Source: Deltaproteobacteria bacterium (GTDB taxonomy: Bacteria; Desulfobacterota; Syntrophia; Syntrophales; Smithellaceae). Taken from it: a stretch of DNA of 64,000 nucleotides. The translations under genes and the position numbers were made by a program. The stretch spans positions 14,553 through 78,552 of the forward strand of contig JAPLJP010000093.1 in NCBI GenBank assembly GCA_026388535.1. The letters run 5' to 3'. The first letter of the stretch is position 1; each line of letters begins with the position of its first letter. The notes under the pieces are model-generated. The model was given only the letters and a program-made list of their open reading frames with translations. It did not search any database and was not told the origin of the DNA. Shown in pieces: positions 5,667 through 14,356 of the stretch.

Positions 5667-6641
5667 CTAAAAAATATAGTGTTTTGTATTCTTGTTCTTA
5701 ATATCCTTGAGAGCAACATCCGGATATATTACATCCAGTTGTATTCGCACTGCGGAACCGAAGGCAAGGCGAGCTGGTTTGGGTTTCTTGTTGTAGAGAT
5801 ATTCATCAATCGTCCAAGCAACGTCCGTAAATCCGAATTGTGAACGAATAGAATTTGTACCGGAAATCCGGCCGTTTATTTCAAAAGGAATCACGCGTCC
5901 ATCAATAGTCGCAATAGATTGTATGTTGCATGATCCGCGTATAGTAAAGTGCTTCATCATCTGACGAATAATTATCAATAACTGCTTATCGTATGTGTGG
6001 TCAACCGTACATTTCACTGTCATTCCGCCAAGAAGCTCACGGGAAAATGTAATCATGCTGTGCAGCTCTCCGCTCTTGGTGACGTAAAACGCTGTTGGCA
6101 ACTCTATACCTTTATATAATTTCTGTACAACAAACGAATCAGGATATTTTTTGATATTCTTAGGTTCATACACTATACCACGAGACCCCCTGCCCTCGCG
6201 TGGTTTGATAATATCACTGTTAAACACCCCCTTGTATTCGGAAGGAAGCGCTGTTTCAGCAAAGGGAATACCGTGCGCTGTAAACTTCTGCCATGTTCTA
6301 TATTTATCCAAAAAGGTCAGGTTCACATCATAAGAAGAAGTCGCAATAGTCGGCAAGCTTCTGCGATTCTTTGAAAGATAAACCGTTTCATAGTCAGTGC
6401 TGGGAATGATGCAATCAACCCGTTCCTCCTTGCAAATGCGCCGTATTTCCGGGATATATTTTTTATCATAAGCAAATGGTACTTGATAAACAACATCGCA
6501 GAGATGCGTACCCGCAGTCACGGTTTCGACATTCACTCCGACAATCCGGATAGATTTCCGGTGCGCAATGGTATTTCTCAGGATTCCCTGTCCAACATTC
6601 CCGCCAATACCGGTAACTAATATAGTTTTTTTATTTTTCAT
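5667..6641 (-). CDS. ATP-grasp domain protein (carbamoyl-phosphate-synthase-like fold, sugar/amine ligase type)
   Basis: The protein is 324 aa. It has an N-terminal Rossmann-like 'ILVTGIGGNVGQGI', a central 'IIKPREGRGSRGI' and a C-terminal 'PFEINGRISG', which is typical ATP-grasp topology. It overlaps the upstream SDR gene by 4 nt. Confidence 0.6.
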   Translation of the reverse strand: MKNKKTILVTGIGGNVGQGILRNTIAHRKSIRIVGVNVETVTAGTHLCDVVYQVPFAYDKKYIPEIRRICKEERVDCIIPSTDYETVYLSKNRRSLPTIATSSYDVNLTFLDKYRTWQKFTAHGIPFAETALPSEYKGVFNSDIIKPREGRGSRGIVYEPKNIKKYPDSFVVQKLYKGIELPTAFYVTKSGELHSMITFSRELLGGMTVKCTVDHTYDKQLLIIIRQMMKHFTIRGSCNIQSIATIDGRVIPFEINGRISGTNSIRSQFGFTDVAWTIDEYLYNKKPKPARLAFGSAVRIQLDVIYPDVALKDIKNKNTKHYIF

Positions 6642-7468
6642 AACATCTGCTCTATTCCTTCTTCTAACGATATCAAAGGAACAAAATCAAGCCGTTTTTT
6701 CGTATAAGAAGCATTGTATTCACAGGAGGAAGCCGTATCAATGCCGTCATGTTTTATCTGACAACCGGGAACATGAGAACAGACATATTGCGCTACAGCG
6801 AGATTAGTATTGGAAGTTCCAGATACTCCTAAATACTTTCCTGATCTTTGACTTTTTGCCGCCTTCAAACAAAGCTTTGCCGCGTCCTGAACATGAAGAT
6901 AGTCCTGCTTTCTTTGGCCATCACCCGATAGAGTAATTATTTTTTTCTTTTTAGCGTCTTCAATAATGCCGGGAATAAATGTTTTAGGATACATACCTTT
7001 TCCATACAAGGAAGAAAAACGAATAATTGCGGTTTTTTTATGATAACGCTTCAACAACACTTCTGCTGTGAGTTTTGTTATGCCATACTGATTTGGATTG
7101 CTCGTTCGTGTTCTTTCAGTGACGCGAGACACATCCGAGTTTCCATACACGGAAACACTCGAAGCAAAAACAAGAAAACTTTTTTGAAATTGTAACGCGA
7201 CCTGTAATGGCAATTGGGTATTAGTTTTTATCAGGTCAGTATATGACATAGAACGGCCGGGATATGGGATAGCCGCCGCAACCATAAATACCACATCATA
7301 TACATCACGAATACGACCAATATTAGAAAGTGGAAATATTCTGCACCCTTTGGGTATGCTGATACGATGCTTGTGATAAACTCCTTCCACGATTATTCTC
7401 TGCATCAAACATTCTTCCGCAATCGCTCTCCCTAGAAACCCATTGATGCCAACGATAAGAACCCGCAT
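6638..7468 (-). CDS. NAD-dependent epimerase/dehydratase (extended SDR)
   Basis: The protein is 276 aa. It has the 'MRVLIVGINGFLG' glycine-rich NAD motif and the catalytic YxxxK 'YGITK'. Confidence 0.75.
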   Translation of the reverse strand: MRVLIVGINGFLGRAIAEECLMQRIIVEGVYHKHRISIPKGCRIFPLSNIGRIRDVYDVVFMVAAAIPYPGRSMSYTDLIKTNTQLPLQVALQFQKSFLVFASSVSVYGNSDVSRVTERTRTSNPNQYGITKLTAEVLLKRYHKKTAIIRFSSLYGKGMYPKTFIPGIIEDAKKKKIITLSGDGQRKQDYLHVQDAAKLCLKAAKSQRSGKYLGVSGTSNTNLAVAQYVCSHVPGCQIKHDGIDTASSCEYNASYTKKRLDFVPLISLEEGIEQML

Positions 7469-7675
7469 ATTATTTACCCTGTTCGCGTATTTCTTTCATA
7501 CAGTGGTCATAAGAAGTAGCGCCGCCAAAGCAATAAATCGGCATTATCCAGCAAGAAAGTTAAAAAGATATCGGCTAAATTATTTTTGACACCGTCTACG
7601 AGGTTGTTTCATCTAATCGTTTATCAAAAAAGTATTAACACAAAACTTATCAAGATATTGTTTTAAACCTGGCAG

Positions 7676-7740
7676 AGTATAAGAATACCGTTGGAGTATG
7701 TCAATGAAATATTGACATACCGAAGGCTTATTTATATACT
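7676..7740. promoter_or_regulatory. Back-to-back divergent sigma70-like promoters around a perfect 10-5-10 palindrome
   Basis: The palindrome is GTATGTCAAT-gaaat-ATTGACATAC (7696-7720). On the plus strand TTGACA (7712-7717), a 17-nt spacer and TATACT (7735-7740) point to the radical-SAM genes. On the minus strand TTGACA (7699-7704, reverse complement), a 17-nt spacer and TATACT (7676-7681, reverse complement) point to the SDR/ATP-grasp pair. Confidence 0.45.
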
Positions 7741-7894
7741 TCACACCGCGAAAAAAATGTTCTATCAAAGGCAATAATGAGTACCGAAAGCTTTCGCTAA
7801 TGGGGGATTACTTTTCGATGTCGAAGATACTGCCGGGAAGCCCAAGAAGCAAAAATCTCGCCTGATCAAGAATAGATACTATTAGGAGAAGAAA

Positions 7895-12533: not shown

Positions 12534-12646
12534 TAAAATATAATTGGACGGGAAGGGAAATTGAGAACAAATTGTTAAGTAAGTATTTTACGATCAATCA
12601 TCTCGCAAAAGAAGACCAATCGGTTCAAAGCATATAAATTTTTATT

Positions 12647-14197
12647 ATGATCACAAATACAAAGAAAGAAACATTATATTTTATCGTTCCACGGTTTCCC
12701 TATCGCTTTATTACAGATCTCGAGTTCTTGCGAAAGATAACTAACAAAAAAGGATTCTCTTGTCCATTGTCTCTACCCTCCTTAATTAATCTAACCAATG
12801 AAACTAAGTGGAATATTTTGTTTACTGATGAAAACATCAGTAAAATTAATTATAATATTAAACCTTCACTTGTAGTTCTTTCTGCCATGACCTGTTATTT
12901 TGGAAGTGCTATTAAAATTGCACAAATATTTAAACAAAAAGGTATACCCGTGATATGCGGAGGTATTCATGTATCCCTTTATAAGAACATAAAAGATCAT
13001 CCCTTCTCATCAATAGTCATCGGGGAGGGTGAATATATCTGGAGGGAAATACTCAATGATCATCAGAAAGGATCATTAAAGCCAGTCTATAATAATGATC
13101 AGCATTCTCCTTTGATAGATATTAATTATGAAAAGGTTAATAGATATATTGATTTTTCAAAATATTGTTCTTATCCCATACAAACAACACGTGGCTGCCC
13201 TTTTAATTGTAATTTTTGTACAGTTACAGAATTTAATGGAAAAGAGACAAGACACCGTCAAATAGAAAACATTGTTAATGAGATTAAATATGTTCAAAAA
13301 ACAAACCACGAAATTATCTTTGTTGATGACAATATAATTGGTGACAAGAAATTTGCAAAAGATTTATTTGAGGCACTTGCCAAACAAAATATTTTTTGGG
13401 GTTCTCAATCTTCAATAAATATTGCCTTTGAAAAAGACCTTCTTGAATTGGCAGCGCAGGCTGGTTGTGAATATCTTTTTCTTGGTTTTGAATCAACGCA
13501 AAAAGAATCTCTCCAATTATTTAACAAGCAAGTGAATTTATCTGTAAAAGATAAATATAATGAAATTTTTCCCAATATTCGATCTCATGGCATAGAAATA
13601 GTAGCTTCTTTTATTTTAGGAAATGATTCGGATAACGGAGAATCATTTAGGCAGATTATTGATTTTATCGAAGATAACAATATTATTTACGCAATGGTAA
13701 ATATTTTAACTCCGCTACCGGGGACAGAACTGTTTAATACAATGGATAAAGCATCCCGCATTATTGATTATAATTTCACCCACTATGATGCACAACATGC
13801 TGTTTTTTCTCCAGCACAAATGAGTGCTTCTGATTTGGAAAAAGGATTATGTTTAATCTATAAAGATATCTACAATCTCAATGCACTATTCAGGCGAACC
13901 AAGGCTACTCTTTGTGAATACAAATTTTTTAACAAACGTAATTCTTCCAAATTTAACATAAGCTTTTTTCAAATAATTACCTATTTAAGGTTCATTTTAA
14001 GATTCATCTACCAGTTATTCCTTACTAATTCTCTTCATGTTTTAATTGACAGACTAATCTTTGTTTTTAGAATGTTCTTTCTTCTTTTTGATAATAAAGT
14101 CCGAGAGAAAAAGAATATTTTTTATTACCTTATTTTATGCATAAACTTGAACGATTTTTCCCGTGATACAATAAAACAGATTCAGAAAAGATATTAA
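12647..14197 (+). CDS. B12-binding-domain radical SAM protein (class B), paralogue 4
   Basis: The protein is 516 aa. It has 'VICGGIHVS' and the cluster 'TRGCPFNCNFC'. The C-terminus is hydrophobic: 'FFQIITYLRFILRFIYQLFL...LIFVFRMFFLLF'. Confidence 0.85.
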   Translation: MITNTKKETLYFIVPRFPYRFITDLEFLRKITNKKGFSCPLSLPSLINLTNETKWNILFTDENISKINYNIKPSLVVLSAMTCYFGSAIKIAQIFKQKGIPVICGGIHVSLYKNIKDHPFSSIVIGEGEYIWREILNDHQKGSLKPVYNNDQHSPLIDINYEKVNRYIDFSKYCSYPIQTTRGCPFNCNFCTVTEFNGKETRHRQIENIVNEIKYVQKTNHEIIFVDDNIIGDKKFAKDLFEALAKQNIFWGSQSSINIAFEKDLLELAAQAGCEYLFLGFESTQKESLQLFNKQVNLSVKDKYNEIFPNIRSHGIEIVASFILGNDSDNGESFRQIIDFIEDNNIIYAMVNILTPLPGTELFNTMDKASRIIDYNFTHYDAQHAVFSPAQMSASDLEKGLCLIYKDIYNLNALFRRTKATLCEYKFFNKRNSSKFNISFFQIITYLRFILRFIYQLFLTNSLHVLIDRLIFVFRMFFLLFDNKVREKKNIFYYLILCINLNDFSRDTIKQIQKRY

Positions 14198-14280
14198 TAA
14201 TTTTATCTCTTTAAGGTTAATTTTTTTCGGGGACAGTGCTTTTTTGCCAACTAAAATAATTTATAAACGATTTATTTTAC

Positions 14281-14356
14281 TGGAGCCGATGACCAGAATC
14301 GAACTGGTGACCTACTGATTACGAATCAGTTGCTCTACCGGCTGAGCTACATCGGC
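14281..14356 (-). tRNA. tRNA-Thr (anticodon CGU), CCA encoded
   Basis: The reverse complement is GCCGATGTAGCTCAGCCGGTAGAGCAACTGATTCGTAATCAGTAGGTCACCAGTTCGATTCTGGTCATCGGCTCCA. It folds into a cloverleaf with a 7-bp acceptor stem, the anticodon stem ACTGA/TCAGT, the loop TT-CGT-AA and the T-arm ACCAG-TTCGATT-CTGGT. Confidence 0.95.

Follow-up and report, generated by a model that had tools for sequence, protein, structure and literature searches.

The characterised members of the cobalamin-type radical S-adenosylmethionine (SAM) enzymes come nearly all from antibiotic, cofactor or lipid pathways. A 2026 review distinguishes more than 100 sequence groups of such enzymes, the largest still unexplored (PMC12931638). 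Within a 64,000-nt stretch (hereafter the window) of contig JAPLJP010000093.1 from a deltaproteobacterium of the Smithellaceae (GCA_026388535.1), four consecutive genes (genes 1–4, encoding the paralogues P1–P4) form an array of class B-type radical SAM enzymes that ends at a gene for tRNA-Thr(CGU). All four are ancient, divergent paralogues and new, uncharacterised members of a known superfamily. Compared across related contigs of Smithella-like Syntrophales, the array is on balance best read as a chromosomally anchored, vertically inherited and content-variable module for the tailoring of an envelope glycan. Confidence is high in the structural and evolutionary description of the array and moderate in the glycan substrate, to which the gene context points.

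Comparison with described systems

HpnJ of hopanoid side-chain biosynthesis (encoded with HpnI and HpnK) and the archaeal calditol synthase Cds belong, like the array, to the BchE-like part of the superfamily. The target of both is the sugar head group of a glycoside carried on a lipid, and both are encoded beside the family 2 glycosyltransferase (GT2) that attaches the sugar, which in the case of HpnJ is HpnI (PMC13459092). Genes 1 and 2 align nearly full-length with the HpnJ model at 150–153 bits, but the array differs from both systems in having no hopanoid genes at the locus (neither hpn nor shc), up to seven families per locus, and PMT_2/ArnC-like partners. AprD4, the radical SAM 1,2-diol dehydratase of apramycin biosynthesis (PDB 6FD2), has an amino-sugar as its substrate and is the best or near-best structural match of genes 4 and 1, which it resembles in two-domain size and layout, although identity is only 18–19% and no aminoglycoside cluster is found here. 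Both AprD4 and ArsL work without cobalamin despite sharing the fold (PMC12931638).

The cobalamin radical SAM C-methyltransferases of the TsrM, CysS, MgmA and TokK type have the same Rossmann cobalamin domain followed by a triosephosphate isomerase (TIM) barrel with the CxxxCxxC motif (template modelling (TM) scores 0.55–0.72). Divergent C-methyltransferase paralogues share a single biosynthetic locus for the carbapenems (ThnK/ThnL/ThnP and TokK) and for gentamicin (GenK/GenD1). These sets differ from the array in their low identity to it (≤21%), in their location in secondary-metabolite clusters rather than a conserved envelope locus, and in having no known cassette-like turnover between strains. 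BchE, the anaerobic Mg-protoporphyrin IX monomethyl ester cyclase, is the top NCBIfam match of genes 1, 3 and 4 and the name given automatically by the Joint Genome Institute (JGI) to many homologues, but there is no bacteriochlorophyll pathway in the context here and the name is an annotation artefact.

As a locus, the array resembles those of the O-antigen/Gtr type and the Arn type, which likewise combine conserved flanks with strain-variable content of lower GC. Loci of the Gtr/Arn type, like the array locus, pair an ArnC/GtrB-like polyprenyl-phosphate GT2 with a GT-C glycosyltransferase of the ArnT/PMT_2 type. Whereas loci of these types vary in glycosyltransferases, acetyltransferases and similar genes, the array locus varies in radical SAM enzymes. 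Full-text searching of the literature found no account of an array of radical SAM genes at a glycan locus or in Smithella.

A conserved site with variable gene content

The window was compared with more than 12 Smithella-like contigs with orthologues of 69–86% identity, taken from a metagenome scan (L numbers denote contigs or loci of these relatives). The orthologues of P2 (69–85% identity) repeatedly carry the name Smithella sp.; a search of species genomes with the alignment of its family (family C, below) gave, among the matches listed, only homologues of 27–40% identity and no Smithella genomes, and these homologues were used solely for a rough census of neighbourhoods. The map of the array covers 15 loci, and clustering of 66 radical SAM proteins at ≥50% identity resolved seven families, A to G, with identities between families of ≤36%. 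Families A and C are the most numerous (21 and 19 copies), followed by B (10), G (6) and D, E and F (3 each).

The locus has a constant order: a GDSL esterase, a PMT_2 glycosyltransferase, a membrane protein with tetratricopeptide repeats (TPR), a variable module, the array, tRNA-Thr(CGU), a calcineurin-like phosphoesterase (Metallophos), and FilC-like and FilD-like outer-membrane proteins. Orthologues of PMT_2 (50–68% identity) hold the same position in L002, L004, L011, L012, L103, L105, L106 and L118, and those of the membrane-TPR protein (56–78%) and of the Metallophos protein (52–64%) are likewise present in the relatives. The Metallophos protein, which scores 77 bits on the NCBIfam LpxG model (cut-off 350), is conserved in position and not necessarily linked to the array in function. 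The FilC-like (FapF-related) and FilD-like (FadL/Toluene_X) genes (16100–19413) directly follow it and are conserved there in all relatives, with scores far below the NCBIfam cut-offs.

Between these flanks, each genome holds three to seven class B-type radical SAM genes in orders that differ from locus to locus (Table 1). Families A and C are universal, occurring in every array with enough sequence, and B, D, E, F and G are variable, with turnover by deletion, by replacement and by duplication of A-B units. Family A is usually followed by B, E or G, and L004 and L011 each have the A-B unit twice; a further contig, P0122, has the order A-like, E, B-like. In the two closest relatives, L002 and L004, gene 1 (family D) is 83–86% identical, and the two genes of the module to the left of the array are also conserved (ATP-grasp, 82–84%; sugar epimerase/dehydratase-family short-chain dehydrogenase/reductase (SDR), 72–77%). 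The expectation that the four genes would be conserved together is borne out for D-C-A in the closest relatives and for A and C everywhere, but not for E. Conserved flanks around variable content, seen over the 15 loci, are a hallmark of O-antigen-like loci, as is the presence of PMT_2, epimerase, ATP-grasp, ArnC-like GT2 and WbqC in the unit.

Orthologue pairs have ratios of nonsynonymous to synonymous divergence (dN/dS) of 0.07–0.15, and synonymous divergence (dS) is 0.65–1.3 for D, C and A compared with 1.04 for the TPR flank, values in keeping with a long stay at the locus under strong purifying selection. For A and C, a recent exchange between members of the clade was considered, as these are ~80% identical compared with 52–68% for Metallophos, FilC/FilD and PMT_2; the dS, similar to that of the TPR flank, tends to favour constraint over recent transfer. 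With its fixed site, seven families in varied combinations, purifying selection, private promoters in A and C (see below) and consistent association with genes of polyprenyl-phosphate glycosylation, the locus constitutes a tractable natural experiment.

Base composition and the island question

The initial annotation read the AT-rich block as a possible island acquired at tRNA-Thr, and some of what it relied on holds. The 3' end of tRNA-Thr(CGU) does face the block, 83 nt from the last stop, and this tRNA gene is a proven attachment (att) site in the clade. The compositional contrast is smaller than was supposed: instead of about 32% GC against 60% in purL, the four-gene block has 35.4%, the rest of the window 44.7% and purL (49328–52465) 50.7%. 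A block that is AT-rich and lies beside a tRNA is, however, insufficient for calling an island, and the question was settled by a relative with a true att-bounded island. In L103, a 6,367-bp element (14868–21310; 34.4% GC) lies between the array and tRNA-Thr(CGU) and encodes an AAA/AbiEii-like ATPase, two unknown open reading frames (ORFs), a PF00589 tyrosine integrase and a DUF4145 protein. A perfect direct repeat of 47 nt, matching the tRNA 3' end, marks its two boundaries. The copy nearer the array is a partial tRNA, 49 nt beyond the stop codon of the final radical SAM gene, and the tRNA at the far end of the element is intact. In this clade, tRNA-Thr therefore does serve as an att site, and the array is not part of the integrated element but lies on its chromosomal side. 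The ATPase and unknown genes of the L103 element may be a defence system.

All related contigs that extend far enough into the flanks have an orthologous array at the same site, about as diverged as the flanks themselves, and in each of these tRNA-Thr closes the right end of the array. The 76-nt tRNA is identical to that of the window in eight of the nine relatives compared (L002, L004, L101, L103, L105, L106, L111 and L118; L011 differs). As the initial annotation had itself noted, there is no integrase among the ORFs screened in the window (252–32353) and no direct repeat of the tRNA end (a 24-nt probe of the 3' end, allowing ≤3 mismatches, has no second match in the 64 kb). A repeat search of 5000–16000 gave no att-like repeats, insertion sequence (IS) ends or tandem structure. 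In L002 and L004, the GC of the array (0.41) equals that of the flanks (0.40–0.42). A recent genomic island at the 3' end of tRNA-Thr(CGU) is thus highly improbable as an explanation of the whole AT-rich block, for which it is regarded as largely refuted. What survives of the idea is that the tRNA-proximal end is variable and that gene 4 is aberrant and absent from the closest relatives, and an island origin is possible only for that gene.

Within the block, GC falls from gene 1 to gene 4 (40.7, 36.8, 36.5 and 30.2%). Gene 4 is a clear outlier, its GC at third codon positions (GC3) being 25.5% where the window averages 46.5 ± 7.4; genes 2 and 3 are mildly low and gene 1 is typical. The only tetranucleotide outlier of the window is a stretch at about 10–15 kb (z up to 3.1). 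In almost every genome compared, families A and C have a GC content 5–10 points lower than that of their flanks. The GDSL/SGNH esterase-like gene at the left of the locus (252–1454; weak matches of the LA_2486/LA_2490 type) is AT-rich like gene 4 (31.3% GC; GC3 28%) and is kept at 57–66% identity in the same place in relatives; in L012, it comes after a carbamoyltransferase and a DUF5989 gene.

Gene loss and turnover within the array

The spacer ahead of gene 1 contains the scar of a deleted family F gene. This scar, 48 nt long, joins the start region of F as found in L004 and L103 (ATGTCGAAGrTACTGC) to the 3' end of F as found in L002 (AAGATTCTGCCGGGAA; F C-terminus ...TKILPGKRFAT and stop) across a 10-nt microhomology, AAGATACTGC, and leaves a 15-codon ORF (Table 1). 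Because an intact F gene of 470 aa stands at this site in L002, L004 and L103, and the spacer upstream of the scar is homologous to the spacer before F in relatives, the array of the window derives from an F-D-C-A-x array by deletion.

The other end of the array has a different history, with family E as its mobile-looking member. Gene 4 alone could be a recent import that replaced or displaced B after A in an otherwise ancestral array. Its composition (GC, GC3 and tetranucleotide z, above) would fit, as would the lack of an E gene in L002 and L004, where B fills that slot, and the state of the E orthologues, which are just 69–76% identical with saturated dS (>2) and have 41% GC in L012 and L105 compared with 30% in the window. 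Further, L010 (7010–11179; GCA_964394185.1) has a lone E gene, 69% identical to gene 4, with a phage-type integrase and the lipid A deacylase PagL as neighbours, a setting that suggests mobility and perhaps a connection with lipid A. Against import, the order A-E-B recurs in three further contigs (L012, L105 and P0122), so that E is also one of the usual constituents of the array; gene 4 has neither a mobility gene nor a repeat beside it in the window; and a dN/dS of 0.08 signifies long-term constraint. Recent import of gene 4 is accordingly a serious possibility, if one that falls a little short of being probable, and is compatible with the explanation of the array as an anchored, content-variable locus and not exclusive of it.

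Table 1. Mapped features of the array locus in the window, followed by the order of radical SAM families in the arrays of the window and its relatives
Feature	Position	Strand	Basis or content
PMT_2 (ArnT/PMT-type GT-C) glycosyltransferase, left flank	1712–3688	-	Pfam PF13231
Polytopic membrane protein with C-terminal TPR, left flank	3984–5657	+	TPR Pfam matches, residues 435–540
ATP-grasp protein (PylC-like N-terminal domain; PRK12767 'carbamoyl phosphate synthase-like' type)	5667–6641	-	PF21360, PF02655
NAD-dependent sugar epimerase/dehydratase-family SDR, in divergent operon with ATP-grasp	6638–7468	-	PF01370, PF16363, PF04321
Back-to-back divergent promoter pair TTGACA-17-TATACT	7704–7676; 7712–7740	-; +	11/12 match on each strand
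Scar of deleted family F gene, 15-codon ORF MSKILPGSPRSKNLA and stop	7818–7865	+	F start fused to F 3' end
Gene 1 (P1), family D class B-type radical SAM enzyme, 468 aa	7895–9301	+	Pfam B12-binding and Radical_SAM
Family C promoter TTGACA-17-TAAAGT	9399–9427	+	Box conserved in otherwise diverged spacer
Gene 2 (P2), family C, 460 aa	9487–10869	+	Pfam B12-binding and Radical_SAM
Family A promoter TTGACT-17-TATATT	10936–10964	+	TTGACA-17-TATAyT in relatives
Gene 3 (P3), family A, 501 aa	11028–12533	+	Pfam B12-binding and Radical_SAM
Gene 4 (P4), family E, 516 aa; AT-rich, variable, tRNA-proximal	12647–14197	+	Pfam Radical_SAM
tRNA-Thr(CGU), 76 nt, right boundary of array	14281–14356	-	ARAGORN, Rfam
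Membrane-anchored calcineurin-like phosphoesterase (Metallophos; distant LpxG/YaeI-like), right flank	14496–15608	+	PF00149
Array, window			D C A E
Array, L002			F D C A B
Array, L004			F D C A B A B
Array, L103			F C A B
Array, L011			A B C A B
Array, L102			A B C A +
Array, L118			A B C
Array, L012 and L105			A E B C
Array, L101, L106, L111 and L100			A G C

Domains, folds and family membership of the enzymes

The ORF coordinates confirm four consecutive genes of the annotated lengths, all on the plus strand, and the CxxxCxxC motifs are as first reported (ARGCPFQCKFC, TRGCPYRCTFC, SRGCPYNCSYC and TRGCPFNCNFC, at residues 205, 202, 200 and 184 of P1–P4, respectively). Radical_SAM (PF04055) matches in all four, with E-values of 1e-17 to 1e-25. 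An N-terminal cobalamin-type domain had been assigned to all of them and is recovered for genes 1–3 (PF02310, 55–78 bits against a threshold of 32.1) but not for gene 4 (24.9 bits), which also has a weak DUF4070 match. Pairwise identity among the four is just 19–28%, in agreement with their description as old paralogues and not recent copies. Basic C-terminal tails occur in all four (12–14 lysines and arginines in the last 70 residues), but the hydrophobic segment that was said to accompany them is lacking in genes 1 and 2. In genes 3 and 4, transmembrane-like segments are predicted at 451–469 and 462–481 (Kyte-Doolittle hydropathy over 19 residues of 1.75 and 1.93, cut-off 1.6), corresponding to long C-terminal helices in models, and peripheral or single-helix membrane association is plausible for these two of the four proteins.

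AlphaFold models were built from alignments for P1 (predicted local distance difference test (pLDDT) 92.7, predicted TM score (pTM) 0.91) and P4 (92.2 and 0.90), and compared with the PDB using Foldseek. Both share a layout of N-terminal Rossmann-like domain, partial TIM barrel and C-terminal helices, with the Rossmann-like beta-alpha domain present in P4 despite its sub-threshold PF02310 score. For P1, the matches were TsrM, MgmA (9CCB), AprD4 (TM 0.74), OxsB, CysS and TokK, with TM scores of 0.68–0.74 for TsrM, MgmA and AprD4. For P4, AprD4 came first (TM 0.62–0.72), followed by TsrM, MgmA, OxsB, TokK and CysS, and the model matches AprD4 and TsrM over its full length. Sequence identity to all of these is 13–21%, and the PDB entries closest by sequence have E-values of 1e-15 or worse and ≤21% identity. 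Structure prediction and Foldseek thus confirm the fold, without telling one chemistry or substrate from another. The public annotation of gene 4 begins 57 codons downstream, omitting 12647–12817 and giving 459 aa. The long form is the correct one, because orthologues of 516–523 aa align full-length and the model places the first Rossmann beta strand at residues 8–14 with high confidence.

None of the four proteins reaches any NCBIfam cut-off, in accordance with the view that they fall in no subfamily with a known substrate, and the best matches (BchE, ApyD, HpnJ, Sden_1168 and PhpK) lie three to nine times below threshold. For P1–P4 in turn, the scores are 186, 162, 115 and 116 bits for BchE (TIGR02026; cut-off 481.35), 150, 153, 96 and 100 bits for HpnJ (TIGR03471; 577.6), and 68, 87, 39 and 52 bits for the AprD4 diol-dehydratase family (NF033070; 500), while HpnR (TIGR04367) gives 62–95 bits against 650. 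The candidate assignments to BchE, HpnJ/HpnR, PhpK/Sden_1168 P-methylases, BzaD and methyl-coenzyme M reductase (MCR) methylases were all rejected, as the scores are far below the curated cut-offs and the matching context is absent. Family A (P3) has one 50%-identity cluster representative at 77% identity and the next at ≤40%, with 2,697 representatives at E ≤1e-30.

Among the better NCBIfam matches of genes 1–3 are ApyD and the 'RiPP maturation radical SAM C-methyltransferase' model, which raises the prospect of a module that C-methylates or cross-links a ribosomally synthesised and post-translationally modified peptide (RiPP) in the manner of PoyB/C, ApyD or TIGR03975. Proteusin clusters, too, carry several class B paralogues in a row. 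The scores are nevertheless four to nine times under the cut-offs (ApyD, NF050148, 83–168 bits against 750; TIGR03975, 25–99 bits against 282), there is no conserved small ORF in the spacers, which diverge outside the promoter boxes, and no gene for a protease, transporter or RiPP recognition element stands at the locus in any relative. A peptide-modifying array is therefore the least probable of the explanations considered, and very remote.

Promoters and transcription units

The spacers measure 426, 185, 158 and 113 nt, as annotated, and the near-consensus promoter boxes ahead of genes 1–3 are present as described (Table 1), with gene 4 having only the weak pair TTGAGA-17-TATTTT (12561–12589; 9/12 promoter match). 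In total, promoter-like sites in the region are not above chance (45, compared with 36.6 ± 6.7 expected), and it is their conservation in relatives that gives the three strong promoters significance. The -35 boxes of the divergent pair between the SDR and gene 1 form a perfect palindrome, GTATGTCAAyGAAATATTGACATAC, with the inverted repeat GTATGTCAA-N7-TTGACATAC, and this core is conserved in L002 and L004, where the remaining spacer has diverged. The palindrome could also serve as the operator of a regulator. The promoter of gene 1 is the one that drives F-D in relatives.

Families A and C carry their own promoters through rearrangement of the array. Ten of 17 family C genes have the box TTGACA-17-TAmAGT 83–91 nt ahead of them, and it is absent where C comes 0–45 nt after another gene; the box of family A precedes A in 14 of 19 instances. 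In alignments, the boxes stand out as conserved stretches amid spacers that have otherwise diverged. Families B, D, E and G are mostly without a box and start 0–113 nt after the preceding gene. From these sigma-70-like boxes, three transcription units are likely in the window, [D], [C] and [A-E], with gene 4 probably co-transcribed with gene 3. The leaders follow the same division. Families A and C lack a Shine-Dalgarno sequence and have instead conserved AT-rich leaders (..GATAAATTAT-ATG and ..TTTTCTTC-ATG; for C and A of the window at 9465–9486 and 11006–11027, with orthologous positions alike), whereas families D, F and B have the Shine-Dalgarno sequences AGGAG or GGGAG. An Rfam search of 5000–16500 at a permissive threshold returned the tRNA only, with no cobalamin or SAM riboswitch in the 5' untranslated regions (UTRs). 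In L004, the spacer upstream of the family A gene (12975–13398) contains an insertion of ~265 nt, absent from the window and L002, which has GC-rich sequence resembling an inverted repeat and may be a small mobile or repeat element.

Substrate of the enzymes

The initial annotation found no substrate-defining gene in cis and left the target open between a membrane lipid, an envelope glycan and a peptide. The former statement was too strong, since the divergent SDR and ATP-grasp genes adjoin PMT_2, a member of the ArnT family; as for the latter, the context points to an envelope glycan as the more probable target than a peptide or a core membrane lipid. The ATP-grasp protein of the window scores 155 bits on NCBIfam NF009402, under the cut-off of 218. 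Other relatives replace the SDR/ATP-grasp module with a small GT2, the best matches of which are ArnC, AglJ and PgfS, all of them polyprenyl-phosphate sugar synthases. The module of L111 consists of a full-length ArnC-like GT2 (207 bits), WbqC, a thiamine pyrophosphate (TPP) enzyme and an ATP-grasp protein above the PRK12767.1-1 cut-off.

A similar context recurs outside the clade. Homologues of family D at 50–57% identity, spread over four phyla (e.g., Nitrospirota, Kiritimatiellia and metagenome bins), are found among DegT, 4,6-dehydratase, GT2, WbqC, methyltransferase and STT3 genes, and a family C homologue at 54% identity occurs with Wzy_C, GT2, a PMT_2-TPR fusion, DegT and an epimerase. 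Around ten loci of homologues with 30–40% identity from many phyla, the family met most often among the flanking genes is Glycos_transf_2 (10 of 112 ORFs), with PMT_2 and GDSL occurring twice each. Taken with the precedent of HpnI/HpnJ and Cds, the GT2/PMT_2/epimerase context leads to the proposal that the array carries out radical tailoring of an envelope sugar.

Under this proposal, the enzymes would be cytoplasmic, in part membrane-associated, and would act within an envelope glycosylation pathway dependent on polyprenyl-phosphate sugars. An adaptor module (epimerase and ATP-grasp, or an ArnC-like GT2 with or without WbqC, TPP enzyme and ATP-grasp) would make and load the sugar, and each radical SAM enzyme would then apply 5'-deoxyadenosyl radical chemistry to an unactivated carbon of the nucleotide- or polyprenyl-phosphate-linked sugar. 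For members with a good B12 domain, C-methylation via methylcobalamin would be the most probable reaction; AprD4-like dehydration, HpnJ/Cds-like ring contraction or epimerisation may also occur, above all for E. The GT-C of the PMT_2 type would then pass the product to an acceptor in the periplasm, for example lipopolysaccharide (LPS)/lipid A, another glycan or a protein, and strains with different sets of enzymes would differ in their surface chemistry, much as strains with different O-antigen loci do. In a bolder version, the sets are combinatorial, a core of A and C being joined by B, E, G, D and F as exchangeable members, and they equip a surface glycan or the lipid A of syntrophic Smithella-like bacteria with C-methyl, deoxy or carbocyclic groups, so that swaps of radical SAM cassettes rather than of glycosyltransferases generate the surface diversity of strains. 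This version is speculative and on present evidence rather unlikely; if it held, the largest unexplored part of the B12-radical SAM superfamily would gain a role new to biology.

Several points weigh against a glycan-tailoring role. The glycan link is one of guilt by association, the GT2 enrichment stands without a formal background model, the distant homologues may differ in function from the members of the array, and the conserved PMT_2/TPR flank may be mere synteny. The architecture of the membrane-TPR protein resembles TMTC and PMT_2-TPR fusions, but a GT-C identity finds no support in searches, as its N-terminal 420 aa have no Pfam match (E ≤1), no BLAST link to PMT_2 and PDB matches to the TPR only. 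A flippase, polymerase (Wzy), Wzx and ligase are all missing from the immediate locus; a flippase-like gene lies 11 kb off (25470–26408). Cobalamin binding by gene 4 is doubtful given its sub-threshold Pfam score. The type of chemistry (C-methylation, dehydration, ring contraction or epimerisation) is not readable from sequence, and non-methylating B12-radical SAM enzymes are indistinguishable from methylases (PMC12931638). Finally, the AT-richness and missing Shine-Dalgarno sequences of families A and C could reflect a foreign origin.

The enzymes might instead methylate, cyclise or cross-link the hydrocarbon chains of membrane lipids, or else polyprenyl carriers, with HpnP/HpnR, GDGT-MAS, Gmm, GrsA/B and the ladderane-type TIGR04072 as comparators. 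The known lipid-tailoring enzymes of this kind are all class B radical SAM enzymes, often present as several paralogues (PMC13459092). The hydrophobic C-terminal helix of genes 3 and 4 would suit such a role, as would the 141 bits of gene 2 on TIGR04072 ('lipid biosynthesis B12-binding/radical SAM'), and a link to lipid A is hinted at by PMT_2 of the ArnT family, the distantly LpxG-like phosphoesterase, and PagL beside E in L010. The NCBIfam scores, however, are all far under their cut-offs, and for GrsA/B, GDGT-MAS and Gmm, which have no dedicated models in the libraries, the similarity seen is that of class B enzymes in general. Further, no shc/hpn, tes, plsA or fatty-acid genes occur at the locus in any relative, and the neighbours that recur across phyla are GT2, DegT, dehydratase and WbqC. 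Action on lipid chains or carriers is thus considered unlikely, and a sugar the better candidate.

If tailoring of an envelope glycan is indeed what the array does, it would give a physiological role to thousands of genes misannotated as 'BchE-like' or 'YgiQ-like', among anaerobes that include Omnitrophota, Elusimicrobiota, Nitrospirota and DPANN, in which unusual C-branched or deoxy envelope sugars would be predicted.

Other features of the window

Beyond the FilC/FilD-like genes, the minus strand carries a second envelope/secondary-metabolite cluster (19468–32353). It includes a dTDP-4-amino-4,6-dideoxy sugar transaminase of the WecE type (626 bits, above cut-off), a WecD-like acyltransferase, a flippase-like protein, a class II 3-deoxy-D-arabino-heptulosonate 7-phosphate (DAHP) synthase, an FkbM methyltransferase, an ATP-grasp protein and a GT2, along with two large proteins of 621 and 632 aa without a family match. 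At 32901–35072 is a gene for a protein of the neutral/alkaline ceramidase family (PF04734, E 1e-56), which is unusual in a deltaproteobacterium and might relate to sphingolipid metabolism.

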